Origin: Pristiophorus japonicus
Taxonomy: Eukaryota
Assembly (NCBI RefSeq): GCF_044704955.1
Contig: NC_091999.1
Coordinates: 65,286,001-65,350,000, forward strand
DNA length: 64,000 nt
Direction: 5' to 3'
Made by a program: the position numbers and the translations under genes. Positions 1 to 64,000 of the stretch are shown in pieces; positions within the stretch are counted from its first letter, which is position 1, and each line of letters starts with the position of its first letter. The notes beneath the pieces were generated by a model. The model was not told the origin of the DNA and searched no databases. It saw nothing but the letters and a program-made list of their open reading frames with translations.

Positions 1-284
1 AAACTTGATAATTTGGAGAGAGTTGGAATGGGAACAGGAGTTGAAGTAGATGCAGCATTGGCCTCCAAAATACAGCAGGTAGATGACTGTTTGGTGCGTA
101 CTACCTTTTTTCTCGAAGCTTGTTCTAAACTAAGACCTGGGAGCAATAGCAATTTTTTAAAAAATTTATAACTTCACTATATAATCTCATTAATTAACAT
201 AATTATAAATAACCGCTTGAAAAAAACTAACTAATTAAATTAATTCAGTGTATAAATAAGCAAATAAATAAAAACTAACTAAAG

Positions 285-1262
285 ATGGCAGTGCAGGTAA
301 TGAGCCGAGATTGTGGTGTGTATGAGTTTGTGGACAGCAAATCTGTCGCTCATTCCCACATCTGCAGGAAATATCTCTGCTGTATTCTCTCTGCCTCAGG
401 GTAATTGGGCTGGAGTGCACGTTCGACACACTCTGAAACACATAGGAGGATTAATTATTTCTGGATAGTTTAATCCAGAAAACAGTCACACCCCACAAAA
501 AGGAGCAGGTTCAGGAACGTCTGTGGCTGATCAGGTGTCTTGCAGCGAGAACTGAGGAGAGGCTGAGAATGAGACACTGCTTCTGTCCAACACGTACCTT
601 ATACTCGTTACCTTTAATGATAAGGATAAAGATTGCGTGGAGGACAGCCACAATACATACCAAGCTACGTGGCTCAAAAGTTTGTTCACAGGCAGAGATA
701 GGTAGAAATATGAAACAATTATTTTGCATCAGTATTTATCAAGGAGACAAAACAGGTGGACATGATATCGGGTGATATTAGAAATGAAATAACTGCATTT
801 AAAATAACAAGAGGAAAATATTATTGAAATTAATCAAACCGAAAACGGATAAAATGCTGGCTTCGGACGAATTACATCTAGGAAAGCAATAACAGAAGCA
901 TTATTAAATATATTTAATATTTCGTTAGAATAAGGTGCAGTGCCGGAGGATTGGCAGATACCTAATGTAATACCTATTTTTAAGAAGGGAGATAGAACGT
1001 ACCTGAGGAACTATAGTCCAGTCAACTTAGCATCGTTGAGAGGAAAAATAATGGAATCCCTAATAAAGGAGAAAGTGGAAGAACAACTAGAAACCAAAAA
1101 TGAATAGTGAGCATGGATTATAAAAGGGAAAGTCTTGAATTGACCAAATTCTTTGAATTTTTCGAAGAGGTAACAGATAGCATAAACTAACGTAATGTAG
1201 TAGTTGTAATTTAGTTGGATATACAAAGGCCTTCGATAAGATACCCCATAATAGACTGAAAG
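285..1262 (+). mobile_element. Old CR1 LINE fragment (ORF1 N-terminal zinc finger joined to an ORF2 piece)
   Basis: MAVQVMSRDCGVYEF..HICRK near 285; VPEDWQIPNVIPIFKKGDR..NYSPVNLAS near 940-1035. Confidence 0.7.
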
Positions 1263-1364
1263 GGCAGATCACAAATCGTAATTACAATTAATAATAATAA
1301 TTGGAATGTATTAAAATAGATTTAACAGATAATTAAAATGGATCCCACAGCCTGATTTTCAGAC

Positions 1365-3019
1365 TGTGGGAAGCATGTGTGGAATGTCTTCTGCAGAGGG
1401 GCAGATTTCCAATTCATAGACCAAAGGTCTTGGGACCTGGGCAAAGACACAGATAACGTAGAATTTGAATTCTACAACAAGATACAAGTTAAATAAAAAG
1501 AATCATAACAACATGTATCCTGAGTTTCCAATTAAAGCATATAGAGGCCAGATTGGAGGACGCAACCTACCAGTTAATCATATATTAATCAATCCGCACG
1601 TATTAATTGTAACTTGCATAATTATGTAATGCTATAATCTGAAACTGTATGAAATAAGATGTCTCTGGCAGTTTTTTTGAGCATTCCTTCAAGGATAGCT
1701 CCCCTGCTGGCTTGTATCTTTTATTAATAAAACCAGCATTTAATTTAAGGCAAACATACCCCGAGTGGTGGTTTGAAGTTCACCATATCAACTTGGCGCA
1801 CTCAGTGGGATCTACTTGCGGGCAGATTAGACTTAAAACGCCGAACCAACCTAACAACGAGTGAGTAGAGAGAAATTCTCCTCCCAAAGTAAACCAGAGA
1901 TCCATAGAATCTGAAGCAGAGTCCATGCAGCCATTAAATGCAGTTGAGGCGCTCGTCAGGACACTGTAAGTAAATACGTGTGTCTGGAGAATAAGTGCAT
2001 ATACAGGATATCGGGGAAAAAACCTCGGTGTAAATATTTCTGCATAAGTAAAGGCGGAAAAACAGTACTAGGTAAAAAGCCTTCGAGTAAAATGTTCCGC
2101 TTAAGTAAAGATGGTAAAACGGGAACTGAGGAAAAAGCCCCGGTGTAATAAATGGCAAAGGAATCTGCCAAGGCACTTGGAGGTTTGAGGTATAATATAC
2201 AAGAAGAGTTTCTGAGAGATAAATCTGAAAAGGTTAAGAAGATGGTTAAAGCAGGATAAGATGAAGGGAAAAAGATAATTTTAACAGCCGGAAAGATGAA
2301 TAGAAAGATACCCGAAGGTGAGATGGACAGAGAAAGTGACAAAAGACAACAGGATGTAAGTATAAAAATAGATATAGATGACAGAAGGGAATGGACAGAG
2401 GAATTTGGCCCACATTTCTATCCCCCACGAACAGGGTTATGATTAGGACCCGAGGAAAATAAAATATTAATTGGGGGCCAGAAGGCTCGCTTCGTAGATA
2501 TTTTTCAGAAGACCATAACAAAAACTCTTAGTGACTGTCTTAAGTGAAGTATGAATCGAAAAATAGAGCCGGCCAAACAGTAAGCTCTGTTGAAATAAGA
2601 GAGACTTATATGAATGTCTGTCTTTGAATGAAAGTACGTCTGTGATTTTTGACTGCGGAATATTTGAGGTGGGAATTAATGAATTTTTCATGAGTCTGAA
2701 AGCCTGCTTCACAAAGTGGTGGAGCTGTCTGTTGTTTTGGCCCCACCCACTTTTTCAGACAGAGTGATTTTTTTTAAGCCTTTGCAGTGTTGTCCTGTAT
2801 GAGGGAAGTTTTAAGCAAGTGTGAACCTAGAATTGAATTACATTTTAAGTTGTGGATTTATTCAGATGATACGTTATGGAGCTAGGAAATGCACAAAGGA
2901 TAGGTTTGTTGAGCAAAAGATACAAAATGCTTGGTCCGTTGGTATTTAAAAAAATTTCGACACGTTCACTTGTCAAAAGAATGCACGTAATCATTGAGTA
3001 CATTTGTTTGAAAGACAAT
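1365..3019 (+). mobile_element. Older related LTR element, 5' part (LTR-like region ending ~1790, PBS-like 1794-1811, internal region)
   Basis: AATAAA at 1726, then ..ATATCA followed by TGGCGCACTCAGTGGGAT. Positions 2510-2760 are the reverse-complement homolog of 7880-8250. The left boundary is uncertain. Confidence 0.65.
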
Positions 3020-3672
3020 TGTTAGCGCGAATGTCTTCCTGCAAGTATCACTCGACACTTTGTGTCGGTTCCAACACCAAAACGGCTTTTATTACGCCGG
3101 CGGGGAGAGAGTCTCTGATCAAACTCCAGACACACCACTCCACCGAACAAAGAAATCCATCGATATTTATATGTTTTACAAGAGTTCATTACAGTTACTT
3201 CAGCCCTCATCGGCTGGTCACAATCCAATCATAAAGATTATAGATTACATATAGGTTTCTTTAACCCAATAGAATAACCCTCAACCTCAGGGGCTGTATG
3301 TTCCGTTCCTTTCAGCTCGGGCTGATTAATGACCCTGTTATGTGATGCAGGCCTCCCCTTATCTCTGTTCCTCGGGGCTCTGCAGTGTGAACTCATTTAT
3401 TAAGGACATTCTATACCAGGTACCATAATGGATCGTTATAGTTATCTCGTCTCAAGCGGATGATCCAAGGCATTCCCGGCAGTGGTCCTCACAGGGTCAT
3501 TGCTCGGTCAGCCTCAGTCAACAGTTCATTGCTTGACTAACTGAGTTCCCATCAGGCTTGGGCAGCCATTTTATATTTGGCCATTTTAAACATATATGCG
3601 TATATATATATTCAGCAGGTGCCTAATGCCTAGTGTATAGATATATTCAGCAGGTGCTTAATGACTACAACA
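3020..3672 (-). repeat. 3' LTR
   Basis: Preceded on the minus strand by the PPT GAAAGGGGGGAAT (3685-3673). AATAAA at 3093-3088. Confidence 0.93.
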
Positions 3673-3851
3673 ATTCCCCCCTTTCAGTAAATGGAGTAAT
3701 CCTACTCCGCCTTTAACCGACCGCCCTACCTTTATTTGCTATTATGCACAGCCTGGTACTCCCTGCCTCAACGTGCTGGCCAGTCACGCGGTTACAGGAG
3801 TCCCGGTTGCTTAGATCAAATTGACAAAGGCCTAATCCTCCAGTCCCTCGA

Positions 3852-5540
3852 TTAGATAGGCCTGTTTAATATCCGGGGACCGAGCATGCATCCCTCTTCA
3901 TTGCGCGTGGTGCCTGCATGCCTGATCAATTGTATTACGGCCAGTATGTGTGAAATTATTCGACTCCAAGGATAGATGTTCACATTTATTCCCCAGTCCC
4001 AGACCTTTCTCCACCAATTCTGATTTTGTAAGTCTACATCGATATCTCCTTCCAGTACTTTGATTTTAGTTCGCAGTTGGTGGTAGAGCTTTACGGACTC
4101 ACCCAACCTGAGCTTCAATTCCCGTAATGGTTCGGTTAGATGTGGGAAAGGGACCTGATCTGGCGCGTCATAATCCTGCAACTAATCATGCAGCTGATAT
4201 ATTAATCGGTTATATTAATAACTTCGGGCTTCTGACGCCTAACCTGGGTGATATGTGCTTGCCCGATCGTGACAGGCCGTAGCGGCGCAAACCAAAAGTT
4301 CGGCTGCGATATGAGGCACTGCAGATCATTATACTGGTATGAACACTCTGTAGTAGAGACGCAGTACCTTCCCTTTCCTCCGTAGCCGGCCCTTGCAAAG
4401 TGCCTGTGTGCAGGCACTATATCTAGTACACATCCGTCGGCTCGGTTCAACCCGCACTCGTTTAGCTCCCCTCTGCCCACTGGGTGAGGACATACTGTGA
4501 TCTCCCCCCCTTTGCTTGCATCCTGTTAGGGAAATCCCGATAAGTATGGCGTTTTGGCGAACGGCGGAGGTGGTGGTCAGATATTAACGGATGGAGACAT
4601 TTTCCCGTATTACTCCGATATTCTCTAGTTGGTACAGGGGGAACGGCCCTGAGTCCAGCTTGGCTATAGCGATCATCAGGACTACCCTATCCCAGTATTA
4701 CTACCTATCTGGCAATCTGGAATCGCTGGGTATACTCGGGTCAGTCCCTTCAGAGTACAATTATCCAGTGTCCCCCTCTGGTTGGCCAACTGAACCAAAT
4801 GTGAACTGTCTATCCAATCGAGTACCTCCCCGCTTTGGATCTGATCGAGATTGTGGCGGATCTGTCCCACCATCCACAGGCCATAAGCATGACAGAGTTG
4901 CCCCTGTCTTTGCTTTCCGGTATCTTCTCTTTCTCTGTCAATTATGTGATTGATGGTTTTGGCGTGAGCTTCCAGGACTGAGATGCCATCCAGCTGGATT
5001 TCAGCACCCTCTTTTCCTAGGTTGGCTTGGTCATCCTGGTTTTGCTCCACCCTTTCTAATAACCGCTTCATCATCACTTTAAGCTGTTCCACCCTTTTCG
5101 TTTAACACTTGTATGTATAGCGAGTTTACTGCGGAGGTTTCTGCATTGAAGCCTGCAACAACATCATTAACTATTTCCCTCCTTATTCTGGGGGCTTACT
5201 CCTGTCCTCGGAGTCTACTGGCACCCATTGCATCGGCAGCCTGCAGCATTACGACTTTAATTAATACATTATACATTTTCCTTGACTGTTCTGTACAATA
5301 TTCCAGCATCTGGATGACTGAAATATTGAACAGGACAGGCACAATATCATGCTTAACAATATCATACAACAATTCCCCTTCGTTGAACAGTACGATTCAA
5401 TTTTCTGGTCCCTTAATAGTTATGGGGCATGGCAATTCCTCAGGCTGTGTGGTGGTTCTTTTGGTGCGCGGTGTCGCAGGGGGTGAGCAGAATACATACA
5501 TCGATATTGCGGCAGCCTGTACCTCCTCATAGTATCCACA
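3852..5540 (-). pseudogene. env: Decayed env / class I fusion glycoprotein (F-protein-like)
   Basis: The stitched frames give a furin site RIRR (5189-5178), then EIVNDVVAGFNAETSAVNSL, a long heptad helix, a Cys-rich block (GCKQRGEITVCPHPVG..ECGL..GCVL..YCVSTTEC..QC), a second heptad, Trp-rich NWWRKVWDW and the start of a TM. Several stops and frameshifts. Confidence 0.8.
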
Positions 5541-8500
5541 CAACCCCAGCCCTTTTTGTGGCTGACTAAATGTTGTGGTTGGGCCGGGAGCGCACAAATT
5601 CTCCCAAATACATTTATCGAGCCCCCTGGCCTGCCTTCGCCCAATGCAACTGCTCCTTGTACCCATGGAGCACTGCACGCATACTTTGTCCTTATTCAGG
5701 TTCACTTGCAGCCATGAATTAAAATAATTCCTGTCCTTGCTCCAGTCCTTGGCTGATGGGATGCATATTCCATCCGTTAAATTAATCAAGACTACATAGA
5801 CCATGTAGTTGTTTATTTCCTGAGTGTGCTGCAATCCGTTGGTATCATCCAGTGTATGCGTGGGTCTTAAGGTTCCCAATATTATGAGTTGAATCAGTTG
5901 CCGCCGTCCCATCTCGGTGAGTTTAATCTGGAATTTTAAACAGACAGCCTGGTCGTCACCAGCTGTTAGGTTCTGTTCGACTTGTGTCGCGGTCACTCTG
6001 TGGAATCGGAGGTAAGGATTAGATTATCCATATTCTTTATAGTCGTACCATCTATATCACTTCATGTCCCTGTCTGGGCTGCCGTCGGTTTTGGATTTGA
6101 GACTGCTGTGCTCGAGCCTGCACGATGACCCATCTAAATATTATAATAACTCCAATCAACACCAATTGCACCACTATTCCTCCAAACATCCCAGTCTGCT
6201 TTACTGTTAGGTTGGGTTTGTGTACTACACCTCTCCCCTGTGTGGTACATTGGCTCGATTGCCATCGGTATGGTGCTATGGCTGCACAATGCACTATCCG
6301 TCTGGTCCTGTTTTTAAAAATCTCTTCCAGGCTGTTTATCTTAACTTTTAATTCTTGACCAGCTCGTTCTGTTTTATTTTTATTCTGACTATCCCAGCAT
6401 TTCCTCTGTCTGTCAGGTGGGTTTTCTTTATTTTAGTAAGAAATACAAATTAGTAATGTCCAGTGTAAAACAGCTGTCAACTTAAAGGGTTAACTCCTTT
6501 ATAGGTTTGTAAGAAGGCCTGATGTGATTCGTGTAATCATGCAAATATTTGCGCCTTCAAAACTTGCTTATAAAATAGGAATCCGTTAAAGCAGAAATCA
6601 TTAGTAAAGTGGTCAGAATAAAACTCTTCTCAACAGAAAAGACAGCATTTTCGATTAATCTCCAAATTTTCTAAACTTCTAATTCAAGTACTTGCCAAAG
6701 ATTTTTTTTTAAGTGAGAAACTGAAATCCAATTTTCACACAAGCTGTATACATTCCAACATTTCGTTTTTTTTTAACGATTCTGTTCACTGGGTAAATCT
6801 TGTGATTTATTTCTCTCTCTGCTGAGTTTGCACAGCTCAGATCTTTTCTCCTCGGTTATTTTCAAAAAATAACCCTCCTGCTTGTTTAGACTGTTTGGGA
6901 CTTTTCTTGATCAACAACGTCCACTTTGGAAATCTTTTCAAACTGCAGTGAAACTTTCTCGTAATTTAAAATCATTATCAATGTAGAGTGTCTTTTACCT
7001 CCTCCAATTTTTTTTCCAATTAAACCAATATCTTTTTCACAGTCAATATCAATTAGTATTCCGTAAGTAATGTCTTTTTCCATCACAAACACCCCCTTTT
7101 TTTTCAACACCTAATTAGTACGTTACGTCTTTTTTTTTCAGATCACCTTTCTTCAATTAGTGTTTTACAGGGAGGGCTCGTGACTCCGTAAATTTGTTAA
7201 TTTAAAATCATCAGACAAACGAAGACACTTTTAACTTTCAAATTAGTTCAATATGTTTTCTTTCAAAGTTGCGTCTTTTTCCTTTTTTCCCCATATCTAG
7301 AACGGAGTCCAGCACGCAGGCTTTGTTGGCTGTTTTTCGTTGTCACAAAATGTTCCAGTTTCAAGGTCGTTAAAAAGTATTTTTCTAAACTGCTAAAGCT
7401 TGCTGTTTTAACATTTTCAAAAGTCTCTTTTACACATTCGCAGATAGCTCACCACTCGCCCGGGAGTTTGACCTGATCCATGAAGGTACTTCTAGATTGT
7501 TTTCAAACCGTTTAGTTTTATTTGCTCCTTTTTTCTTTAAGAGATCAGATTTAATTTAAAACTTTTAAAAAATTTGAATCCATCTCAGTATTTTGCTGTG
7601 CCTTCTCTTAACATCTCAAAATCCCAATTCAAATTTTGTAATTTCAATCTTTATTTAAAACTCTTTTTTTTTTAGCTAGAAGCTTGTTTTTAAAAGGCAT
7701 TATTTATCTCATTCCTAGACTAAATTTATGTCTTTCAGACCAATGTAATCCATCCTTTGTGCATTTCCAGCTCCGTAACCTTTAATCCGAATAAATCCAC
7801 ACCTGCGTTTCTAACTTAAAATGTCTTAACACTTCCCACATACAGGACAACACTACAAAGGGTTAAAAAAAACGTTCACACTGTTTGGAAAAGTGGGTGG
7901 AGCAAAAATAAACAGACAGTGGCACTACTCTTCCAAGCAGGCTTTCGGAAACATGCAAACATAAAAAATTCATTCCGCAGTCAAAAAATCACACAAGGCT
8001 CTCACTCAAACAAAGACATTCACAAAAGTCTCTCTTCATTAAACAAAGCTAATTAATTTTTTGGCCGGCTCTATTCTTGGGCTACATATGTCACTCAAGA
8101 TAGTCACTATCAACTTTTATTGCATTACTTAGTTGCGCAAATTACAATTAATGATATTCACAAAAGTCTCCTTTCATTCAACAACGTTTATTGTTTAGTT
8201 GGCTCTATTCTTGGATCCATACTTCACTTAAGATAATCACTGTCAGTTTTTTTTTATTTGTTACATATTGATTTACTTCCTCTGTTAATTTTACATGGGC
8301 TTGCAGTATCAAGACCACAGCCTTTTCATTTTTATCTTTCCTTTCCTTCTCCCACCATTCCCGCTGATTTGCTGGCGGGTCCTGGGGGTCCCACCCTGAT
8401 TAATCATCTTCTCAATTAGTTTATTTTGTTTTTCCGCCAGGTGGCGGGGAAGGGACCCTTCCCCACTCGAGGTTATTTGAATTATTGGCCATTCCTGGGT

Positions 8501-9015
8501 AGGACGAGAACCGTTAGGAATCTACTCTCAGAGGTTCACTTTCCACCGAGCGTAACTTGTAGTAGACCGTTTGCTGGCTACTGTCAGGTCACAAGTTCTG
8601 CTGTTACACAAACTTAAACAATTCTTAAAACGCGTTTAAGCAATTCCCGCAGTCCCCCATGCCTGCTTAACGAATACCTAACACCGTTTTGTCTGTTGGT
8701 CCGACCCTGCTCACAGGTTTGGTTTCCGTTGGTCGCTGCACACCACCTGGTCTCCGGGGTATATTTTCAAAGCACACTACTGGGTCTGGGAAGTGTCACT
8801 CGGTATCACGATCCCACGGTCGAATGTGTTTCCTACGCCTACTTATTTCCTGGCCGTCACGTGGGACTAAAGTCCTCTTAATTCAGGCTCAGTCTAGGCG
8901 TTTGAGATATTAGACCGTCTCCTCCTGTCGATCAACCGGCTTCACACACCCTTTATAATTAAACATTTTTTATACTCACCTGGGTTTTGCCAAGGGCGTC
9001 CAGCGACTCCGGGAA

Positions 9016-9033
9016 ATCCTGTTCATGACGCCA
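9016..9033 (-). promoter_or_regulatory. Primer binding site, tRNA-Ser(CGA)-type
   Basis: TGGCGTCATGAACAGGAT lies 1 nt from the LTR end and matches the complement of the 3' end of a vertebrate tRNA-Ser(CGA) (TGGCGTCACGAACAGGAT) at 17/18. Confidence 0.8.
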
Positions 9034-9034
9034 C

Positions 9035-9687
9035 TGTTAGCGCCAATGTTTTCCTGTAAGAATCACTCGACACTCTGTGTCGGTTCAAAAGCCAAAACGG
9101 CTTTTATTACGCCGGCGGGAAGAGAGCCTCTGGTCGAAGTCCAGGCACTCCACTCCAACGAACAAAGAAATCCATCGATATTTATATGTTTTACAATAGT
9201 TCATTACAGTTACTTCAGCCCACATCCGCTGGTCACAATCTAATCATAACGATTATAGATTACATATAGGTTTCTTTAACCCAATAGAATTCCTCTGATA
9301 CCTCAGGTGCTGTCTGTTCGGTTCTTTTCAGCTCGAGCTGATTCATGACCCTATTATGTGATGCAGGCCTCCCCTTACCTCTGTTCCTCTGGGCTCTTTG
9401 TGTGAAGTCATTGATTAAGGACATTCCATACCAGGTACTATAATGGTTCGTTATAGTTATCTTGTCTCAAGCAGATGATCCAAGGCATTCCCGGTTGTGG
9501 GCCTCACAGGGTAATTTCTCGGTCAGCCTCAATCAAAAGTTCATTGCTTCACTAACTGAGTTCCCATCATGCTTGGGCAGCCATTTTATATGTGGCCATT
9601 TTAAACATATATGCGCATAGATGTATTCAGCAGGTGCCTAATGACTAGTGTATAGATATATTCAGCAGGAGCGCAATGCCTACAACA
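9035..9687 (-). repeat. 5' LTR
   Basis: Colinear with 3020-3672 (about 90% identity by eye) and adjoins the PBS. Confidence 0.93.
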
Positions 9688-9692
9688 ACAAT

Positions 9693-11890
9693 ACATTTAT
9701 ACTAGGAATGAGATAAAGAACGGAGAAGGGAAATTTTAATGCCTTAAAAAATAAATGGCGTGGGTGTCTCGAGGTTGTGGGCTGGGGAAGTACACCCCCA
9801 TATTCCTTTGTGTAAAATCTTGATGCAAAATCTTCTAGCTCAGTAAAAAGATTTTTAAATAAAACTTTGGCAGTACAATATTTGAATTTGGATTTTGAGA
9901 TATTTCAGGTGATTCTCCTTGATAAACATTCTGGTTGTATTGGAAAATCTTGGGTTTGGAAATCTTTGAATAAAAGTAAACATACTGCGTCAGAAGCTGA
10001 AGCTTCAAAAGATGACATTCATGAGATACTTTATCACAAAATTGAACTTACAGCACAAAAGATTAGAGTTTTTGATGTTCAGCTTCTCAGATAGAAATTT
10101 GGCACGTAATTACAAAACAAGTACTTTGCATTCTGTGATCTGTGAATCACTATAAGCATAAATGATAAGTCCGAATAAAAACTAGTTTTACCATATTTGA
10201 CATTTCATAATCCAACAATAAATACAAATACTACAAAAGGGGAGCAGAAATTAGGATGGGAGCAGTGAAGAGTTAATTTTGTTGTGAAGATTTCAAGTAC
10301 CACTGTTTTAGAAAATACACAACAAAATGAGATGCATTTAAAATAAAAAAATAAATCTGAACTCTTCAAAAAAAAGAAATAAAACTATAATGTTCGGAAA
10401 CAATGTAGAGATACCTTCAGGGACCAGGTAAAACTCTTGGGCAAGTGGGCAGCTATCTGCGAAAGTGTAAAAGGGATTTTGAAAAAATGTAATTGTTAAA
10501 ACGGCAAGCTTTAGCAGTTTAGAACAAAGGAAAATATAAGTTGAACTTGTGACTTCAGATACGCTGGTTGAAGCACCACAGAAAGTGAGACGTAATGGCT
10601 TTGCATCTGGAACATTTGTGTTAATGGAAAGGAGCTATCAAAGCCTACATGCTAGACACTGTTCTAGTAATTCAAAATAATTTGAGATAACGGAAAGCAG
10701 GATTGAAAGTAAATCCCAAAAAGGCACAAATTGGACAAGCTGTCGCACAGAAACTGTGACACGAAATATCCCAAGGAACTAGGACAATGTCTAATGACAG
10801 GAAGGAGAACATTAGGATTATGCCCCGACCTAAACCAGTCTGAGGGGTGTGTAAGGTACTGGGGTTCTTTAGCTATTGCAGGAATTTTGCACCTAACCGC
10901 AGCAATTGCAGAACCAATAAAGTGGCTAGTGAAAGGAAAGTCCGGTTGAAATGGAAATGGTAAGACTCTAACTAAAGACCTGGAATATCCAGGATGTGTT
11001 TTATCAACAGAATATAAACGTGATCACCACCGTCCTGCCGATTCTATCAGGACAAGCAACAAGGCCGGTCCTGGGGGGCCAAGAAACTTTTACCCACACC
11101 GGAGGGTGCAACAACTACGTAAAGCAGCCCCTAGGGGGCGGCATCTGAGTGTCAGGAGCGTTTATCTTGAAGCCACAAGATTACTGTGCAAAACATGTAA
11201 CCTGAATATTGTAAACCAAGGGAATTAACCTTGGGAAATTGCGTGGTAGTTAAACCTGGAACAGAAGTAATGTTGTTATTTGACAATGTGCAGCATGAAA
11301 TGTTACCTATGAGCATAAATTTATCAACCTTATACCTGCCAGAAAAAAATAGCCACAGACTAAAGCATTGTAAATATGATTGCTGGACATAATCCTGATA
11401 ATAGCTAGTGATACATCAGGAGCAAGGGCGTAACACAAGCAACTATACACAAAGGAGGAAGACAAAGGTGAACTATAGCGAATGCCGTATTAAATGTACA
11501 GGGAATCTCAAGTATATGTACCAGATATACAGGTGATCCAGGCAGGATTAGATAGTTTGAGGATAACAACGGAGGTACTAATCAGGAAGCAGGCCAGGAT
11601 TGGGATAGCATCTTCAGAGTTAGGTTCTAAAACATCAAGAAAAATGCTAGGTGGGTGTATCCGTATTGGAAGGCCATGCACGAACAATTAACGAGCTAAT
11701 TAAGCAGGAATTGCGAGGACGATGCCGAGGATAGGAAAAGAGACACATGTCATGCCTGTGGGAGATGGATGATTGGTCAGGTGAGACACAATATGAATCA
11801 GATACAAACCGGGCGAGTTACAGATTCAACTAAATAGCAGCCAGTTGAAAGAAATTGCATAGCACACTGGGTCATTAGATGCATGCATCC
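9693..11890 (+). mobile_element. env: Older related LTR element, 3' part with env remnant, truncated by CR1
   Basis: LLFDNVQHEMLPMSINLSTLYLPE (11273-11344) and RKRDTCHACGRWMIGQVRHNMNQIQTGRV (from 11733) align with LLYDIVKHDIVPVLFNISVIQMLE and RQGQLCHAYGLWMVGQIRHNLDQIQSGEV of the inner env. Confidence 0.8.
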
Positions 11891-11891
11891 T

Positions 11892-14540
11892 GAAACATAG
11901 AAACATGGAAACATAGAAAAAAGTTGCAGGAATAGGCCATTCGCTCCTTCGAGCCTGCACCAACATTCACTAAGATCATGGCTAATCATTCACTTCAGTA
12001 CCCCTTTCCAGCTTTCGCTCCATACCCCTTGATCCCTTTATCTTAAGGGCCATATCCAACTCTATCTTGAATATATCTAATGAACTGGCATCAACAACGC
12101 TCTGCGGAAGAGAATTCCACAGGTTAACAACTCTCTGAGTGAAGAAGTTTCTCCTCATCTCGGTCCTAAATGTCATACCCCTTATTCTTAGACTGTGACC
12201 ACTGGTTCTGGATCACCCAACATCGGGGACATTCTTCCAGCATCTAACCTGCCTAGTCCTGTCAGCATTTTACATGTTTCTGAGGTCCCCGCTCATATTT
12301 CTAAACTCCATTGAATACAGGCCGAATGGATCCTATCTCTCCTCATATGGCAGTCCTGCCATCCCGGAAATCAGTCTGGTGAGCCTTCGTTGCACTCCAT
12401 CAATTGCAAGAACGTCATTCCTCAGATTAGGAGAACAAAACTGAACACAGTATTCCAGGTGAGGCCTCACCAAGGCCTGTACAGCTGCAGCAAGACCGCC
12501 CTGCTGCTATATTCAAATCCCTAAGTTATGGGGCCAACATGCTATTTGCCTTCTTCCTGTCTGATGCAACTGCATGTCAACCTTCAATGACTGATGTACC
12601 ATGACACCCAAGTCTCGTTCACCTCCCCTTTCCCTAATCTGCCGCCATTCAGATAATAGTCTGCCGTCGTGTTTATGCCACCAAAGTGGATAACCTCACA
12701 TTTATCCACATTACACTACATCTGCCATGCAATTGCCCAATCAACTAACCTGTCCAAATCAACCTGCAGCCTCTTAGCATCCTCCTCACATTTTACATCG
12801 CCATCCAGCTTAATGTCACCTGCAAACTTGGAGATATAATACAAAATTCATTCATCTAATTCATTGATGTATATTGTAAATTGCTGTGCTCCCAGCGGCA
12901 CCCAACTAGTCACTGCCTTCCATTGTGAAAAGGACCCGTTAACCCCGACACACTGCTACCTGTCTGCCAACGAGATCTCTATCCACGTCAATACATTACC
13001 CCCAATACCATGTGCTTAAATTTTGCACACCAACCTCTTGTGCGGGACATTATCAAATGCCTTTTGAAAGTCACACTACACCACATCGACTGGTTCTCCC
13101 TTGTCCATTCTACTAGCTATATCCTTACAAAATTCTAAAAGATTTGTCAAGCATGATTTCCCTTTCATAAATCCATGCTGACTCGGACCGATCCTGTCAC
13201 TGCTTTCCAAATGCATTGCTATTTCACCTTTATTAATGGATTCCAACATTTTCCCCACCACTGATGTCAGGGTAACCGGTCTATAATTACGCGTTTTCTC
13301 TCTTAGTCCGTTTTCAAAATGTGGTGTTACATTATCTACCCTCCAGTCCATACGAACTGGCTAGAATCGATGGAGTGTTGGAAAATAATCACCAATGCAT
13401 CCATTATTTCTCGGGCCACCTCCTTAAGTACTCTGGGATGCAGACTATCAGGCCGCGAGGATTTATCGGCCTTCAATCTCATCAATTTCCCTTATACAAT
13501 TTCCCACATCTAAGGATTTCCTTCAGTTCCTCCTTCTCACTCGCGCGTCTTCCTTCGTGAAGATAGAACAAAAATATTTGTTCAATGGTCTACCATGCCT
13601 TTGTTGCCCATTATAAATTCACCTGAATCTGACTGCAAGGGACCTACGTTTGCCTTCACTATTCTTTTCCTCTTCACAAATCGATAGACGTTTTTATGTT
13701 CCCAGCAAACTTCCACTCATACTCTATTTTCCCCCTCCTAATTAAACCCTTTGTCCGCCTCTGCTAAATTCAAAATTACTCCCCATCCTCAGGTTGATGC
13801 TTTTTCTGACCAATTTATAAGCATCTTCCTTGGATTTAACACTATTATTAATTTCCCTTGTTAGCCACCTTCCCTGTTTTATTTTTTCTCCAGACAGGGA
13901 TGTACATTTGTTGAAGTTCATCCATGAGATCTATAAATGTTTGATATTTCCTATCCACTATATACCCTTTAATTATCATTTGCCTGTCTATTCTAGCCAA
14001 TTCATGTCTCATACCATTGAAGTTTCCTTTCCTTAACTTCAGGACCCCAGTCTCATAATTAATTGTGTCACTTGCCGCCTTAATAAAGTATTCTAACTTA
14101 TTATAGTTACTCTTCCCCAAGGGGCCCCGCACAACAAGATTGCTAATTAGTCCTGTCTCATTACACATCGCCCATTCTAAGATGACCAGCTCTCTAGTTT
14201 ATTCCTCGACATATTCGTGGAGAAAACCATCCCTAATACACTTCAGCAAATCCTCCTCCACCATATTGCTAGCAGCTTGGTTAGCCCAATCTATATGTAG
14301 AGTAAAGTAGCCCATGATAACTGTTGAACCTTTATTGCACACATCTCCACTTTCTTCTTTGATGCTGTTCCCAAACTCACTACTATTGTTTGGTGGTACA
14401 CAATTCCCACTAGCGCTTTCTTCCCTTTGATATTCCGCAGCTCCACCCACACAGAATCCACGCGAATATCCTTCCTTACTATTGCGTTAATTTCCTCTTT
14501 AACCAGAAAAACCACACCACCTCCTTTTCCTTTCTAACTA
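11892..14540 (-). mobile_element. CR1 LINE ORF2 (EN-RT), decayed
   Basis: DWRVDNVTP..RNYRPVTLTSVVGK..QHGFMKGKSCLTNLLEF; FRTEMRRNFFTQRVVNLWNSLP; (GAAACATA)n tail. Confidence 0.92.
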
Positions 14541-14712
14541 TCATAGAAACATAGAAACATAGAAAATAGGTGCAGGAGTAGGCCATACGACCCTTCCAGC
14601 CTGCACCGCCATTCAATGAGTTCATGGCTGAATATGCAACTTCAGTACCCCATTCCTGCTTTCTCGCCATACCCATTGATCCCCCGAGTAGTAAGGACTT
14701 CATCTAACTCCC
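14541..14712 (-). mobile_element. CR1 3' end fragment
   Basis: (ATAGAAAC)n tail plus 3' UTR, nearly identical to 40716-40890. Confidence 0.85.
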
Positions 14713-14732
14713 TGTTGATGAATTTAAAGATT

Positions 14733-14815
14733 TACTAGGAGTGGAGTTCGAACCCAGGCAGGTATAAACCCATTGGATTTAATCTCCAACGCCTTAACCA
14801 GTCAGCCATTCTGCT
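14733..14815 (-). tRNA. tRNA-Leu(TAA)-derived pseudogene
   Basis: AGCAGAATGGCTGACTGGTTAAGGCGTTGGA-GATTAAA-TCCAATGG..GGTTCGAACTCCACTCCTAGTA; 83 nt with a mutated anticodon loop. Confidence 0.8.
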
Positions 14816-14924
14816 CTTATCAGTATTCGGATTTTGTCTCTGTGGGAATCTGGGCTGCAGCGCCACTCTCACAGACACAGCTTTTTAGTGAGCATTTTCG
14901 AATATTAATAGTAATATTCACATG

Positions 14925-15165
14925 GGGACAACTCTCCTATTCTTTTTCGAATAATGCTCTGGGAACTTCCACATCCACCCGAGCAGACGGAGCTTCAATT
15001 TAACATTTCATTCGAAAGTCAACAGCTTCAAAAATGCAATATTCCCCAAGTACTGCATTTGAGTGTCAGCCAAGATAATGTGCTCAAGTCTCAGGAGTGG
15101 GACTTATACACACAACCTCCTCATTCCGTCCAGAATACCTCCACTGAATCAAAGCCGATACCAAA
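14925..15165 (-). mobile_element. tRNA-derived Deu-domain SINE (shark type); paralogous copy at ~28170-28410
   Basis: The reverse complement resembles the Deu-SINE core (GAGACTTGAGCACA..GCTGACACT..TGCAGTACT..GGGTGGATGT). Confidence 0.6.
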
Positions 15166-15551
15166 TATCACATCAGTATTAATTTCCCCAAGTCTTTTTA
15201 AAAAGTTCCAGGACATACCAAATTCATGGAGATGATTTCCACAGACAGTTCCATATGCACAGAGACATATATAGAGATAGACAGACAGAGAGACGCACGC
15301 ACAACCACAATATACACGTACCAACGGAAATGCACAGAGTGCCTCAGACATAAGAGGGCGAGAGAGACTGAATCACTATCGCTACTTTGGCTGATTTTTG
15401 CGTTTTTCTACCCGTATGTATCGTAAATATTGCAGTTTAATGACAATGAGAAAAAATGTCAGTATTGAATGGTGTGGGACATTATTCCACCTATCTTATG
15501 GTCAGTTTTTCAGAGACCTGGTTAAATTGTGGAATGGAAAGGGCCGTGAAC

Positions 15552-15631
15552 CGTAGTCAGCAGGATGGAATCAGCGCGGTGAAACCCAATGGATTTCTAG
15601 TCCATCATCGTGAACATTGAGCCACGACTAC
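15552..15631 (-). tRNA. tRNA-Ser(AGA) pseudogene
   Basis: GTAGTCGTGG..GATGGACTAGAAATCCATTGGG..CCTGCTGACTACG; D and T arms damaged. Confidence 0.8.
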
Positions 15632-15939
15632 TGGCTCTCTGCCGCTTTAAATATGACCCAGATTAAAAGTCAAGCATTCAGCTCTCTGCAGCAGAAGGCC
15701 ACAGAGTACCGAAAAAGTCTCTGTTTGCTAAAAATCTGAAAGAGACAATCTTCTCTTGCTGTATTTTTACTCCTCGATGTTGCTCCGCAAATTGTTCCCA
15801 AGGAACAGAAGCAAAATTCCACTCTTTGAAAATGCTGCCTCCTCGTCGGGGAATTAAAGCCACTATACTAACGAGAAACTGACGGTTGCGCAGTCTATCA
15901 CAGCAGCAATCGAGCTGTGCACAGAACTGGACACCGTGA

Positions 15940-16305
15940 AAAAGAGACAGACATATTGTCAGAAAGATATAATCAGACAAACAGACAGCGAATTAGTAAC
16001 AATTCGAGAGAGAAAGTGTGAAACTGCGAGGGAGGGTCAGTCTGAGTGAGACAAAGACTCAAACATATACATATACAGAGATATCTGTGTGCTCCATATA
16101 GAGAGGCAAAGAGTGATGAAAAGACAGAGATGAAGACAAAGAGAAATAGAGATATAAAGAGAGAGACAATTAGAGAGAGACCGACAGATACAGAGAGAGA
16201 AAGAGAGAGAAAAACAGAAAATGAGGGAAATACTCAGCAGATTAGAGACAGGGACTAACAGAGACAGGAACAGAGAGACAGACAGGCAGAGACATTGACA
16301 GAGTC
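15940..16305. repeat. GA-rich low-complexity/microsatellite tract
   Basis: AGAC/AGAG runs; a longer paralogous tract lies at 29765-30555. Confidence 0.85.
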
Positions 16306-35450: not shown

Positions 35451-35474
35451 GCAGGGACGAATTGAATGCTGTCA

Positions 35475-36110
35475 TTGTCTGTCACTGAATCCAGCCAGAG
35501 TCAGTACCTTCACGGGAGGGGCACCAATGAGTGTAGAACTGAACCATGCCAGAGACAGTACCTTCAGGGAAGGGGAAACAGTGAGTGTAGATCTTAATTC
35601 AGCAGAATCAGCACGTTCAGGGGAGAAGAACCAATGAGTGTAGAACTTAACCCAGCCAGAGTCATCGCCTTCAGGGGAGGGGAACCTGTATGTGTGGAAT
35701 TGAACCCAGCCAGAGTCAATAGCTTCAGGTAAGGGGGACCAGTGATTGTCGAACTTAACCCAGCCAGAGTCAGCACCTTCAGGGGAGCAGAACCAGTGAA
35801 TGTAGAACTGAACCCAGCCAGAATCCGCATTTTCCGGGCAGGAGAACCAGTGAGTGCAGAACTGAATTCAGCCAGAGTCAGCACCTTCAGGGAGGGGAAT
35901 CTGTGAGTGTGGAAATGAACCCAGCCAGAGTCAACACATTCAGGGAAGGGGAACCAGTGAGTGCAGACCTGAATCAAGTCAGAGTCAGCACCTTCAGGGG
36001 AGGGGATCCAGTGAGTGTAGAATTGAATCCAGCCAGAGTCAGTAACTTAAGAGAGGCCGGGAGGAGGGGAGTGGAACTGAATCCAGTTAGTATCAGCACT
36101 TCTGGGGAGG
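35475..36110 (+). repeat. 54-bp minisatellite, about 12 copies
   Basis: GCCAGAG recurs at 35494, 35548, 35655, 35709, 35763 (variant at 35817), 35871, 35924 and 36032. Confidence 0.92.
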
Positions 36111-40715: not shown

Positions 40716-41717
40716 AGAAACATAGAAACATAGAAACATAGAAAATAGGTGCAGGAGTAGGCCATTCGGCCCTTCGAGCCTGCACCACCATTCAATGAGT
40801 TCATGGCTGAACATTCAACTTCAGTACCCCATTCCTGCTTTCTCGCCATACCCCTTGATCCCCCTAGTAGTAAGGACCTCATCTAACTCATTTTTGAATA
40901 TATTTAGTGAATTGGCCTCAACAACTTTCTGTGGTAGAGAATTCCACAGGTTCACCACTCTCTGGGTGAAGAAGTTCCTCCGCATCTCGGTCCTAAATGG
41001 CTTACCCCTTATCCTTAGACTGTGACCTCTGGTTCTGGACTTCCCCAACATTGGGAACATTCTTCCTGCATCTAACCTGTCTAACCCCGTCAGAATTTTA
41101 AATGTTTCTATGAGGTCCCCTCTCATTCTTCTGAACTCCAGTGAATACAAGCCCAGTTGATCCAGTCTTTCTTGATAGGTTAGTCCCGCCATCCCGGGAA
41201 TCAGTCTGGTGAACCTTCGCTGCACTCCCTCAATAGCAAGAATGTCCTTCCTCAAGTTAGGAGACCAAAACTGTACACAATACTCCAGGTGTGGCCTCAC
41301 CAATGCCCTGTTCAACTGTAGCAACACCTCCCTGCCCCTGTACTCAAATCCCCTTGCTATGAAGGCCAACATGCCATTTGCTTTCTTAACCGCCTGCTGC
41401 ACCTTTATGCCAACCTTCAATGACTGATGTACCATGACACCCAGGTCTCTTTGCCCCTCCCCTTTTCCTAATCTGTCACCATTCAGATAATAGTCTGTCT
41501 CTCTGTTTTTACCATCAAAGTGGATAACCTCACATTTATCCACATTATACTTCATCTGCCATGCATTTGCCCACTCACCTAACCTATCCAAGTCGCTCTG
41601 CAGCCTCACAGCATCCTCCTCGCAGCTCACACTGCCACCCAACTTAGTGTCATCCGCAAATTTGGAGATACTACATTTAATCCCCTCATCTAAATCATTA
41701 ATGTACAGTGTAAACAA
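40716..41717 (-). mobile_element. Young 5'-truncated CR1 with an uninterrupted 298-aa RT C-terminus
   Basis: ORF 40821-41717 contains FADD and has no stops; intact 3' UTR and (ATAGAAAC)n tail. Confidence 0.95.
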
Positions 41718-43776
41718 TGTACAGTGTAAACAATGTCGTGATTTGTTCTTCTTGTGTGAGTGTGAACTTGCTGAAATCGCTTACACTGCTCCAAAATGTG
41801 ATCTATCAAATCAGCTTATTGAAAAATAGAACATTAAAGTTCACTAAATTATTATATATGAAACTGCGTATAGTTGAGTGTAGCTGAAAGTTGTAATTTA
41901 GAGGGTAGATTTCAATAAATATTGAAACGTTATTATTATTAAGGTGGTAACCCATGTGATGCACCAGGATTGTTATGGTCCCGGGTGAATTTCACGAAAA
42001 TTAAACAGTTCATATCTAAATAACGGTATTTCCCCTGCAGATAATTCTGTTATATCTTTAGTTTGCCACCTGTTCACCTGGACGGTTTTATTTTTGTATT
42101 TAGCTGCGAAATTATTTCTCCAATGAATTAAACGCATTTTTGAACGTGATAAATGTTCTCTGAGCAACCATGCACCTTAACAGGATTTTACCCGTTGAGG
42201 TCTTGTTGAAATCATTTGTTGAGGTCGAGTTTACTGCTGCTTTAACCAGTACTGATAGGTCACTTTTTCATACCTAGAAGACAGCATTTCCAATACTTGA
42301 ATAACATTTCCATATTTGTCATGTACAGGAGTCAGTTTCCTGTAAAATCGGTGCAGTTCTGTTACCACAGGAATCTCTTGTCAGTATTGGTTTCCATAAT
42401 TATCGGACAAGAATATCGTCCAGTCTGAACCCATGAGGTAGGATTAACGCGCTGGAGACCCAACTAGTAGTTGGGGACCCAACTAAAGTAACAGTCCCAA
42501 CTGTTATTGACAATATATGATCTCAGCTTCCCCCACTTTTCCTTTCGGTTATTCTTTTTTGTTTAACATTATATCAAATGGCCTCTTTTGTGAGCTGGAA
42601 TGCAACAGTCACCAGAACCTGGCAGGAGATCAACACATGCAATTAGAATGTAAGTGCAAGTCTTCGGCCCTCGACGGACAGGACCGCGGTATCCAGCTTC
42701 ATGGCATAATTGATTGTCCTTTGCATTTTCCTTGGCCCAGTCAAGGTATTGATTATTACTGGGAACTCAACTGCACTTTGATACATTGTGCAAATGAAGA
42801 ACTCCTCACCAACTGATGTCCTCCTGTTTGACTAAACCATTATCAATTCCTTGCATATCCTGGCTTCTGCAGATTCCTTTACTGAATGTATTGATTATTT
42901 TACCTCAGTGGGGTTAGTCATTGATATCAGTTTTATCCTGTGTTTAATCAACCTTTCCGGCAACCCACACTAATACATTGCTGTTGTCCACCCCATCGGG
43001 CCTCATGCCTGGAGAAGGCCCAAACATTTCCTTTGCCTGTCAATTGTAACTTGGCTCACCGTGCTATCCCTGAGACTGGGTTATTTTTTGGGCACTGACG
43101 GTCGTTTTATCGGCCCACTTACATGTAAGGATCTGGTTTCACGCTGGGAAGGAAACCCATTGCTAATGCTGTTCAGAGTTGTTCAAATGTTTCATCTCAG
43201 TCATGATCCTTTTTATCTGCTATGGACTGATGGCAAATAAGCAGATCGAAGTGGGAGCTGGGAAGGAATCCATGGAGCTGATTAAGAAGTGTTGAGGACC
43301 ATTTGGGTCATTCTGGCTCTCCTCCTTTTCTGCTTTGCCCCATTTCACATCTTTGAACTGTCTTTTGTGTTGAAGAACCTGCTGAGTCCATCAAGGGAAA
43401 TCGCAACGTGATATGTTTGTCATATTCGGGTGTATACCTGAGCCGTCACTGCCCTCAGCATCGCCCTTAATCAGCTACTCGACATTTTCAGGTCCCAAAT
43501 ATTTTATTGGAGACCACGTTGTTGTTGGGGGTAGCGCGTTGTCCACTGCCTCCACACCTTCTCCACATCGACCAGAGTGTTAGTTACAATGCAGAATCGT
43601 ACTTACTACTTCCTAACACGGAGTTGTAATCAGGGTATTATGAAGACGACGCCAGCAGAGATCAACTGATTGGAAATGGTGGTGAACTTAATGGAAGGCG
43701 TTATAAATTAATCATGGTCAACTTAGGCTGGCTGCATTTATAATTAATGTGAATATTTCTCTTGATAACCTATAAT

Positions 43777-48560: not shown

Positions 48561-48939
48561 CCAAACTCACGTTTACACGTATTCCTCATCGCTCTCTGTA
48601 AATGAGTTCTGTGTGAGGAACAATGTGATTTCAGCCGAAAGAATGCAACAATTCAATAGATGGGCCTCCGAAACATCAGGAACACAACAGTGAGAAACCC
48701 GCAGAGGATTCACTCACCAGTTTAGAATTGGAACATTAAAATTCAATCTTTTAGTTTACGAATAACAAGGATCGACTTACCCCAAAAACGACTTAAATAT
48801 TACATGTTGATTATATATTTATTTTAAAATATAATGCCTATGCGTCACGTTTAACGTTTTTGGACAGTGAGTTAGATGATGACTATTTACAGATGGATAC
48901 TGCGATCATATAATATAAATTGATTCCGCTCCCTCCCTT

Positions 48940-50100
48940 CTCTCTGCTGTGGGAATGGGATGTACAGTGGTTTAACTACTGCACTATTCCGCTCTCTCTA
49001 GTGGGGAATGAGGTGCACAGTGGGCAAACAATTGCCCTTTTCCTTCTCCCTGGAGGGGAAGTGCGAGGTACAGTGGGGTAACAATTAACCTATCCCCCTC
49101 TCACAGGTGGGGGAGTGTCTGGTACAGTGGATTAACACTTACACTTTCCTCTCTCTCTGGTAGGGGAGTGTCTGGTTCAGTGGATTAAAAATTACCTTTC
49201 CTCTCTCTCATGTGGGGCAGTGAGAGTACAGTTGGTTAACAATTACCCATTCTCCTCTCTCTGGTGGGACAGTGGGAGGTACAGTGGATTAACAATGACC
49301 CTTTCCCCACTCTCTTGTGGGGCAGTGAGATGTACAGTGGGTTAACAATTGACCTTTCCCCCTCTCTGGTGGAGCAGTTGGAGGTACAGTGGGTTAACAA
49401 TTGGCCATTCCCCCTCTCTTGTGGAGCGGTGGGAGGTACAGTGGTTTAACCATTACCCTTTCCCGCTGTCTGGTGGGCAGTGGGAGTACATTCGGTTAAA
49501 AATTGCCCTTTCTGGCTCTCTGGTGGGGCAGTTCGAGTACAGTGGGTTTACAATTACCCTTTCCACCCTCTCTGCTGGAGCAGTGGGACGTATGGTGGGC
49601 TAACAATTACCCTTCCCCCACTCTCTGGTGGTCAGAGGAATGCACATTGGGATAACAATTGCCCTTTCCCCCTCTCTGGTCGAGCAGTGGAAGGTAGAGT
49701 GGGTTAACAATTACCCTTTCCCCCTCTCAGGTGGAGCAGTTGGAGGTACAGTGGGTTAACAATGACCCTTTCCCCTCTCTCATATGTGGAAGTGTCTGGT
49801 ACAGTGGTTTATCAATTGCGCGTTCCTCTCTCTCTGGTGGGGCAGTGGGAGTATTGTGGGTTGACAATTGCCCTTTCCGGCTCGCTTGTGGGGCAGTGGA
49901 AGTACAGTGGGTTAACAATTGCCCTTTCCCCTCTCTCGTGGGGCAGTGGGAGGTACAGTGGGTTAAAAATTGCACTTTCCCCTCTCTCGTGAGTCAGTGG
50001 GAGGTATAGTGTGTTAACTATTGACGTTTCCCCGCTCTCTGCTGGGCGAGTGTCTGGTACAGTGGGATAATAATTGCCCTTTCCCCTCTTTCTGTTCGGG
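48940..50100 (+). repeat. ~52-bp minisatellite, about 22 copies
   Basis: Unit approximately GTACAGTGGGTTAACAATTGCCCTTTCCCCTCTCTGGTGGGGCAGTGGGAG. Confidence 0.92.
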
Positions 50101-62774: not shown

Positions 62775-64000
62775 TTGCAGGGAGAGAGAGGGAAACAAAA
62801 AGGAGGCAAAAGCAAAAGACAGAAAGGAGATGAGGAAAAGTGGAGGGCAGAGAAACCCAATGCAAAGAACAAAAAGGGCCACTGTACAGCAAAATTCTAA
62901 AAGGACAAAGGGTGTTAAAAAAAAGCCTGAAGGCTTTGTGTCTTAATGCAAGGAGTATCCGCAATAAGGTGGATGAATTAACTGTGCAAATTGGTGTTAA
63001 CAAATATGATGTGATTGGGATTACGGAGACGTGGCTCCAGGATGATCAGGGCTGGGAACTCAATATCCAGGGGTATTCAACATTCAGGAAAGATAGAATA
63101 AAAGGAAAAGAAGGTGGGGTAGCATTGCTGGCTAAGGAGGAAATTAAGGCAATAGTTCGGAAGGACATTAGCTTGGATGATGTGGAATCTATATGGGTAG
63201 AGCTGCAGGATACCAAAGGGCAAAAAACGTTAGTGGGAGTTGTGTACAGACCTCCAAACAGTTGTAGTGATGTTGGGGATGGCATCAAACATGAAATTAG
63301 AGGTGCGTGCAATAAAGGTGCAGCGGTTATAATGGGTGACTTTAATATGCACATAGATTGGTTTAACCAAACTGGAAGCAATAAGGAGGAGGAGGATTTC
63401 CTGGAGTGCATAAGGGATGTTTTTTTAGACCAATATGTCGAGGAAACAACAAGGGGGGAGGCCATCTTAGACTGGGTGTTGTGTAATGAGAGAGGAATAA
63501 TTAGCAATCTCGTTGTGCGAGACCCCTTGGGAAAGAGTGACCATAATATGGAGGAATTCTGCAGTATGATTGAGAAAAAAACAGTTAATTCAGAGACCAT
63601 GATCCAGAACTTAAAGAAGGGTAACATTGAAGGTATGAGGCGTGAATTAGCTAGGATAGATTGGCGAATGATACTGAAGGGGTTGACTGTGGATGGGCAA
63701 TGGCAGACATTTCGAGACCGCATGGATGAACTACAACAATTGTACATTCCTGTCTGGCGTAATAATAAAAAAGGGAAGGTGGCTCAACCGTGGCTATCAA
63801 GGGAAATCAGGGATAGTATTATAGCCAAGGAAGTGGCATACACATTGGCCAGAAATAGCAGCGAACACGGGGACTGGGAGAAATTTAGAACTGAGCAGAG
63901 GAGGACAAAGGGTTTGATTCGGGCAGCGAAAATGGAGTACGAGAAGGAGCTTGCAGGGAACATTAAGACGGATTGCAAAAGCTTCTACACATATGTAAAG
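62775..64000 (+). mobile_element. CR1 LINE (ORF2 endonuclease), runs off the window
   Basis: LNARSIRNK..GITETWLQ..VVYRPP..MGDFN..ILDWV..LGKSDH. Confidence 0.92.

Follow-up and report, generated by a model that had tools for sequence, protein, structure and literature searches.

Exchange of the middle of a provirus for a piece of an old retroelement is a pattern that has been named for cattle ERVK C/D, mouse MusD/ETn and koala retrovirus (KoRV)/recKoRV (PMC10924933; throughout, statements on papers cited by PMC number refer to the accessible parts of those papers). Among cartilaginous fishes, members of the snakehead retrovirus (SnRV) clade are known from the elephant shark (PMC4422223), and lokiretroviruses, whose envelope protein (Env) is said to resemble paramyxovirus F, were reported in none of six cartilaginous-fish genomes (PMC7947760). 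Here we describe an endogenous retrovirus (ERV) at 3020-9687 of a 64,000-nucleotide stretch of Pristiophorus japonicus DNA (contig NC_091999.1, positions 65,286,001 to 65,350,000; hereafter the window). The element reads from 9687 down to 3020 (minus strand), and a preliminary description made from the letters alone had read it as an env-only retroelement. It belongs to a real, multi-copy family of helper-dependent, defective ERVs that is not likely to be an envelope donor. Most likely the middle of a complete provirus was replaced in this family by ~2 kb of non-coding DNA; complete relatives likely supplied the Gag and Pol that copied the resulting element, which carried env mostly as dead cargo.

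The two 653-bp long terminal repeats (LTRs) of the window element are 90.7% identical (592 matches and 61 mismatches over 653 bp; Kimura two-parameter distance 0.10), and a polypurine tract (PPT) is present (coordinates in Table 1). Its primer-binding site (PBS) matches the 3' end of the genomic tRNA-Ser(CGA) gene in full save for one C>T change in the window copy, and the leader contains a putative splice-donor-like site at 8980/8979. Ten relatives of the flanks were fetched, and in all ten the flanks are continuous without the element, with a single ACAAT in nine and ACACT in one; because these element-free relatives carry one copy of the pentamer across the junction, the 5-bp target site duplication (TSD) is real. 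Paired LTRs, PPT, TSD and tRNA-Ser PBS had all been recognized in the preliminary description, as had the lack of pol, to which no homology was found in the interior of the window element. Its statement that no gag motif is present did not hold. By tblastn, 8504-8247 matches residues 1-88 of the gag product of a complete virus (54%, E 3e-22), a remnant of the very kind, within 6000-9000, that the description had named as speaking against its own reading.

In the 5.9-Gb genome, a DNA search with env had 3220 first-look candidates; 40 of these were scored, and neither figure is a copy number. An env-independent census with the exact LTR end and PBS gave 40 matches; all 40 carry the gag stub and 463-741 env codons, and none has a pol of its own. 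This search had been proposed in the preliminary description, and its outcome agrees with the non-autonomous, env-keeping family expected there, with the gag stub retained and with complete relatives also present. Most of the 67 family loci have interiors of 4.8-5.7 kb, and the gag stub was found in 66. TSDs of 5 bp, exact or with one mismatch, were seen in 33 of the 46 copies with both ends found, a count that excludes 21 of the 67 loci; they differ between loci, and such duplications imply insertion of the integrase type. Three loci (L134-L136) are probably duplicates of a single insertion. The divergence between paired LTRs has a median of 0.03 and a range of 0.007-0.10 (52 pairs), the window copy being the most diverged. 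ERV clock rates in PMC4422223 and PMC7947760 differ tenfold, leaving no reliable clock for dating the family. A protease-reverse transcriptase insert in one family copy was considered as a helper and rejected: L068:1490-6888 is an unrelated ERV, with its own LTRs, a protease and a deleted reverse transcriptase (RT), nested in the env of that copy.

The interior between gag stub and env is an AT-rich filler of ~2 kb in which no long conserved open reading frame (ORF) was found. About 1 kb of it matches family H, an older defective relative with its own LTR and with RT and env pieces, whose LTR is unlike that of the window family. The filler is 74-93% identical to family H, and its first kb is 74-87% identical to the DNA on both sides of the window element; the H env has merely 28-52% protein identity to the env of a young helper. 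Given this low env identity and the unlike LTR, the filler was likely moved by recombination. This H-matching part contains a ~115-bp internal duplication. The second part, 6195-7295, had no match in the complete viruses or family H, and its 40 best genome matches are full-length family-like sequences. It is conceivable, though we consider it doubtful, that env and filler are kept as RNA cis-elements for export, packaging or dimerisation that favour the defective RNA, a reading that would complement the replacement of the provirus middle set out above. The filler is indeed common to two families that differ in LTR and are distant in env, and for the pairs in cattle, mouse and koala such cis effects have been put forward (PMC10924933), but its length varies from 1.7 to 2.5 kb across the family, most or all of it is missing from L113 and L133, and an Rfam search of the window gave no match. 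A small hydrophobic ORF has left a remnant next to env (pN/pS of 0.40-0.45 against family C), and its equivalent was seen in all seven complete-type copies read. In complete copies (e.g. L104) this pol-env ORF has ~65 codons and one hydrophobic helix, and it is conserved in three helper subfamilies.

Complete proviruses with the same LTR, PBS, leader and env occur in the same genome. A homologue of env from Chiloscyllium has an integrase tail ahead of env, and a genome search with this tail gave 150 scored matches, 14 of which lie within open pol frames of 1178-1205 codons. Three young complete copies (L104/L105, L106/L107 and L108/L109) have LTR pairs 99.7-100% identical and open gag and pol; two of them have a fully open env, and that of the third has 671 codons. 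They are arranged as gag, in-frame stop, pol and env, with gag and pol in one frame across the stop; readthrough of a gag stop is known in retroviruses. Their PBS corresponds to a tRNA-Ser of another type. Closer to the window element is L211/L173, which is covered in full for gag, pol and env and has the PBS of the window element and an LTR 89% identical to that of the window, as close as the LTRs of family copies. L190 and L175 carry LTRs of this type plus pol and env, and L212/L172 combines full gag, pol and env coverage and the same PBS with an LTR 82% identical to that of the window.

The env of the family is itself largely broken. It spans ~700 codons in the window (5912 to ~3814), more than the roughly 550 of the preliminary description, and intact relatives are 699-714 aa long. 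Env homologues with a named source all come from sharks, of four genera: Mustelus (intact, 714 aa), Heterodontus, Chiloscyllium and Pristiophorus (83-90%). Env was aligned for 62 of the 67 loci, five truncated or interrupted ones being left out (L041, L049, L067, L114 and L123), and every one of the 62 copies has at least one break. One 2-base deletion near codon 100 is common to 45 of them, including the window copy, and to 24 of 36 in the env-independent set. The family env is mostly non-working. That the frameshift is functional, yielding a secreted surface-subunit piece of ~155 residues that blocks the receptor or otherwise favours the copies, we regard as very improbable. In 16 of the 45 frameshifted copies an intact signal peptide is indeed followed by a reading frame that ends at one common stop near codon 155, and their 5' blocks are nearly alike, but 11 of the 45 stop before codon 100, private variants in codons 20-98 are neutral (ratio 1.26), and a single founder accounts for the uniform block.

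The variation in env differs by how widely it is shared. Substitutions were counted against the commonest codon per column, with an assumed transition weight of 2 and CpG changes set aside. Variants seen once have a nonsynonymous-to-synonymous (N/S) ratio of 1.2-1.3, and variants in at least three copies one of 0.15-0.21; the ratio is still 0.18 for shared variants downstream of the frameshift in frameshifted copies. In codons 0-140, frameshifted copies are mostly 1-6% apart (the window copy 5-10%), and downstream they are up to 20% apart. Patches of frameshifted envs lie 1-3% from the complete provirus B1, and four-gamete conflicts climb with distance from 0.27 to 0.46 (p 0.002, 500 permutations). 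The env is a recombination mosaic with complete viruses; template switching with those that replicate is the likely route by which the purified variation entered it, and this implies co-packaging.

These observations fit a scheme in which template switching joined a complete genome to an RNA of family H and so gave rise to the family. The product, which has no pol, retains LTRs, PBS, leader, ~82 gag codons, pol-env spacer, env and PPT. Packaging signals of retroviruses can extend into gag, and the leader and gag stub would hold that signal here, so that helper particles could package, reverse-transcribe and integrate the RNA. Co-packaging with helper RNA would account for the pattern of repeated env segment swaps, and such swaps would import the signal of purifying selection on the helpers and likely keep the 3' half whole despite the usual frameshift.

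Several points weigh against this account. The purification seen among shared env variants is, at face value, what a working env would leave; recombination offers an explanation for it, yet selection within the family may also have acted. Seventeen of the 62 copies are without the shared frameshift, most of them with private breaks alone, and leave room for an earlier phase with an open env. Among 60 pol-bearing loci, the closest donor for the 5' env segment (F-type) of the frameshifted group is at 86%, and the survey of helpers covers 83 of the 150 scored integrase matches. The whole env is retained in nearly all copies, as against the 3' end alone in recKoRV1. The transfer of the filler from H to the family is assumed from age and nesting, and mobilisation in trans is likely, on the indirect sign of recombination with complete viruses.

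The preliminary description had gone further and suggested a bipartite system, in which pol-less copies give envelope to env-less gag-pol elements in mutual dependence. In keeping with this, env is retained in all 40 env-independent copies, N/S is low among shared variants, and a minority env lineage is without the shared frameshift. Candidates for such partners are also seen: one duplicated locus has gag-pol with env deleted (L081-L083, L085 and L086), and three pol-bearing loci (L171, L189 and L196) have no env within 3.4 kb downstream. However, the five loci with env deleted, all among the first 20 pol-bearing ones, share 99-100% identity that extends into their flanks and so represent one insertion, and two apparently env-less loci, L163 and L170, have an env displaced by ~3 kb. 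Long env homology was found in 14 of the first 20 pol-bearing loci, and 60 further ones have at least 400 env codons in 51 cases, partial env in 3 and almost none in 6, these six including L163, L170, L171, L189 and L196. Moreover, the frameshift was already present in 45 of 62 family envs when they were copied. The bipartite reading is largely refuted by these counts and appears improbable. A past version, in which the unframeshifted lineage once made a working F-type Env that was used by env-less gag-pol relatives, as a two-part shark retrovirus, we likewise hold to be improbable. Copying of a defective family by complete relatives remains the preferred reading.

We next considered the type of Env that the helpers carry. 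The gamma-type hallmarks, a CX6CC motif and a motif like the immunosuppressive domain, are absent from all three intact homologues, as the preliminary description had it for the window copy; its use of CX6CC as a signature of epsilon-type transmembrane (TM) subunits was loose, exogenous epsilonretroviruses being without gamma-type Env hallmarks (PMC9967133). The long Cys-rich stretch that it placed between two heptad repeats is likewise found, in sequence and predicted secondary structure, between two predicted heptad helices, with ten cysteines from furin site to TM in a young copy. The furin site is at residue 241 of 706 and leaves an N-terminal subunit of ~240 aa; the early position that had been stated was not confirmed. 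Beyond the furin site the prediction gives a long helix, a second one, strands, Cys-rich strands, a further helix and TM, which fits F1; with the signal peptide ahead of the furin site, the order of parts is that of an F-type (class Ib) fusogen. The proposed F-type layout is plausible, and the fold itself received weak support. Pfam and PDB sequence searches with the env pieces, the intact homologues and two alignments gave no match, and PF00523 was not matched in Env at E<=0.5-1.

An AlphaFold model of the whole Mustelus Env had a mean confidence (pLDDT) of 29.5; that of the TM subunit, used for the fold searches, reached 39. With the latter, the Foldseek viral library returned a torovirus spike (E 9e-4), a fish paramyxovirus F0 (E 1e-3), porcine epidemic diarrhoea virus (PEDV) S2 and the Env of walleye epidermal hyperplasia virus 1 (WEHV-1) (to 1e-2), all with TM-scores <0.2. 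A fold search of the PDB with the poor model placed metapneumovirus and henipavirus F at ranks 2-9, with non-significant E values of 0.17-0.5 and below flagellin. Atlas gave the Baculo_F, Fusion_gly and gypsy env clusters at 0.91-0.92, with recognition 1608, under threshold, and VIA-align of the TM-subunit model gave coiled-coil matches alone. Three weak, agreeing leads and no firm match weakly support an F-type fold, and the helper Env is probably a class I fusogen of the F/S2 type. The Envs of the walleye epsilonretroviruses WEHV-1 and walleye dermal sarcoma virus (WDSV) stood at ranks 5 and 20 among the F and spike matches of the poor model, and on such modelling they may be F-type as well.

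The helper Pol comprises protease, RT, tether, RNase H and integrase, and Gag has two zinc knuckles. Its PDB scores are 403 bits for the RT of murine leukaemia virus (MLV)/XMRV, 206 for foamy virus and 205 for Ty3, and the integrase has a weak MLVIN_C match (E 0.003). In an RT tree of 110 of 120 database homologues, the helpers group with fish and shark sequences and stand apart from the gamma-like and large fish clades; no named SnRV or other reference virus is in the tree. Identities over 140 RT positions, counted by eye against supplement rows of PMC7947760, were 70 for SnRV, 55 for WDSV, ~53 for simian foamy virus (SFV) and ~46 for the lokiretrovirus Loki-Pma, whose CPFG motif is LPQG in the helper. 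This hand count points to membership of the helpers in the SnRV clade. With an SnRV-like RT, an MLV-type RT as best PDB match and no PF00523 match, the link to lokiretroviruses and gypsy elements made in the preliminary description was not upheld.

Further env relatives were noted beyond the family. Mustelus has several intact, near-identical Envs (P0003, P0013 and P0015-P0017), suggesting recent activity in that genus. More distant relatives in the Pristiophorus genome, at 31-41% identity, include L117:2665-3738 (minus strand), L202 and L206-L208, representing further lineages of the clade.

The window element is inserted into a copy of family H, which is interrupted by a LINE-like repeat at ~11891 (Table 1). 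Targeted nesting into filler was rejected, as the window alone among 94 flanks matches filler, and the nesting looks like chance. A gag stub was not established in family H (E 0.21). H copies elsewhere (L143, L145 and L147) keep pol fragments and have LTR pairs ~95% identical. The block around the element (window 1-16000) is duplicated many times, with 34 of the 40 best matches on contig C23 and paralogues that lack the element. The flank of the window copy is 91% identical to paralogues that are themselves 94-100% alike; because the flank too carries this excess of private changes, the LTR-based date of the window copy is probably too old. The remaining DNA, 11891-64000, holds many LINE-like fragments, e.g. 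ORFs 40824-41780 and 62834-64000, which we take to be CR1, and tandem arrays of 52-54-bp units at 35463-36107 and 48934-50092.

Table 1 Features of the window element and of the host element H around it (window coordinates).
Feature	Position	Strand	Basis
Host element H, left part: LTR ~1254-1790, primer-site-like motif ~1793, leader, filler start	1254..3019	+	matches LTR pair of L143
TSD ACAAT, left copy	3015..3019	.	flank comparison with relatives
3' LTR, 653 bp	3020..3672	-	LTR pair comparison
PPT	3674..3685	-	sequence inspection
Broken env of ~700 codons, with 8 frame breaks and 6 stops	3814..5912	-	homologue alignment
env membrane helix	from ~3965	-	in env
Furin site RIRR	5189-5178	-	in env
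Remnant of small hydrophobic ORF	6052..6189	-	equivalent between pol and env in complete viruses
AT-rich filler, second part	6195..7295	-	genome search
AT-rich non-coding filler, part common to family H	7296..8254	-	sequence comparison
gag stub, first ~82 codons, frame broken in window copy	8245..8492	-	tblastn
Leader common to complete viruses, 78-87%	8493..9015	-	sequence comparison
PBS, tRNA-Ser(CGA)	9016..9033	-	complement found once in genome, inside ARAGORN tRNA-Ser(cga) gene
5' LTR, 653 bp, TG...CA	9035..9687	-	LTR pair comparison
TSD ACAAT, right copy	9688..9692	.	flank comparison with relatives
Host element H, right part, filler to ~10667	9688..11885	+	sequence comparison
H RT piece, 58%	10694-10906	+	within host element H
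H env pieces, 50-68%	11264-11825	+	within host element H

A defective architecture of this kind was already known, from mammals in the literature surveyed, and is here extended to a shark retrovirus in which the whole env is kept. The family also shows that a dead env which recombines with helpers can give a false appearance of selection, and that dN/dS tests on ERV families may be misled in this way. Of more interest is the helper: an SnRV-like shark lineage with young complete copies and a non-gamma Env, perhaps of paramyxovirus-F fold. That fold has so far been tied to foamy viruses, lokiretroviruses and errantiviruses (PMC11468914, PMC7947760, PMC13524379). If the helper Env has it, an F-type Env also sits on an MLV-like Pol, to which the weak walleye-virus Env matches of the poor model would also point, and the result would bear on the choice among the four scenarios that PMC7947760 sets out for how retroviral Env originated. 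A literature search at title and abstract level, with most subscription papers and repeat libraries outside it, found no description of the family or of an F-type Env in the SnRV clade; the element lists of PMC6001957, PMC10435555 and preprint supplements may include relatives of the helper.

Among known viruses, the helper is nearest in RT, by the eye count, to the SnRV clade, or clade Huo, with elephant shark CmiERV lineage I (PMC6001957, PMC4422223), and shares with it accessory ORFs near env (PMC12193657), the helper having one between pol and env. SnRV has a length of 11.2 kb, four accessory ORFs and an Env tail of 136 residues (PMC6001957, PMC12193657), whereas the complete shark virus is 9.4 kb long with a short tail. 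Lokiretroviruses resemble the helper in being vertebrate elements with tether and RNase H and with an Env that has a signal peptide, an RXKR site, a coiled coil and TM, but differ by the RT and PF00523 results given above (PMC7947760). Foamy virus Env and the F-type Env of errantiviruses are F-fold fusogens of retroelements (PMC11468914, PMC13524379), from whose carriers the helper differs in its Pol scores and in having gag and pol in one frame.

The family is best read as a non-autonomous recombinant ERV of the recKoRV, ERVK-D and ETn kind. It keeps LTRs, PBS, PPT and TSD, has no pol of its own, is present as many independent insertions with the same interior, and has a complete relative in the same genome; an older retroelement, family H, matches ~1 of the ~2 kb of its middle and is the presumed source of that part. 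Koala recKoRV1, a recombinant of KoRV and PhER, likewise keeps the virus LTRs, gag leader and 3' end, has its middle swapped for an older degraded retroelement, and occurs in multiple copies with TSDs (PMC6112702). It keeps env from position 7,619 alone (PMC6112702), in contrast to the whole env and pol-env spacer of the shark family, which is also much older, given its median LTR divergence of 3%. The D-type and C-type of cattle ERVK[2-1-LTR] and mouse ETn and MusD show the same central swap, in which gag and env (or pol) survive in part, and for these pairs trans-complementation and four-gamete evidence of co-packaging have been reported (PMC10924933). The cattle and mouse pairs are betaretrovirus-like and mammalian (PMC10924933), whereas the shark helper is SnRV-like, with a non-gamma and possibly F-type Env.

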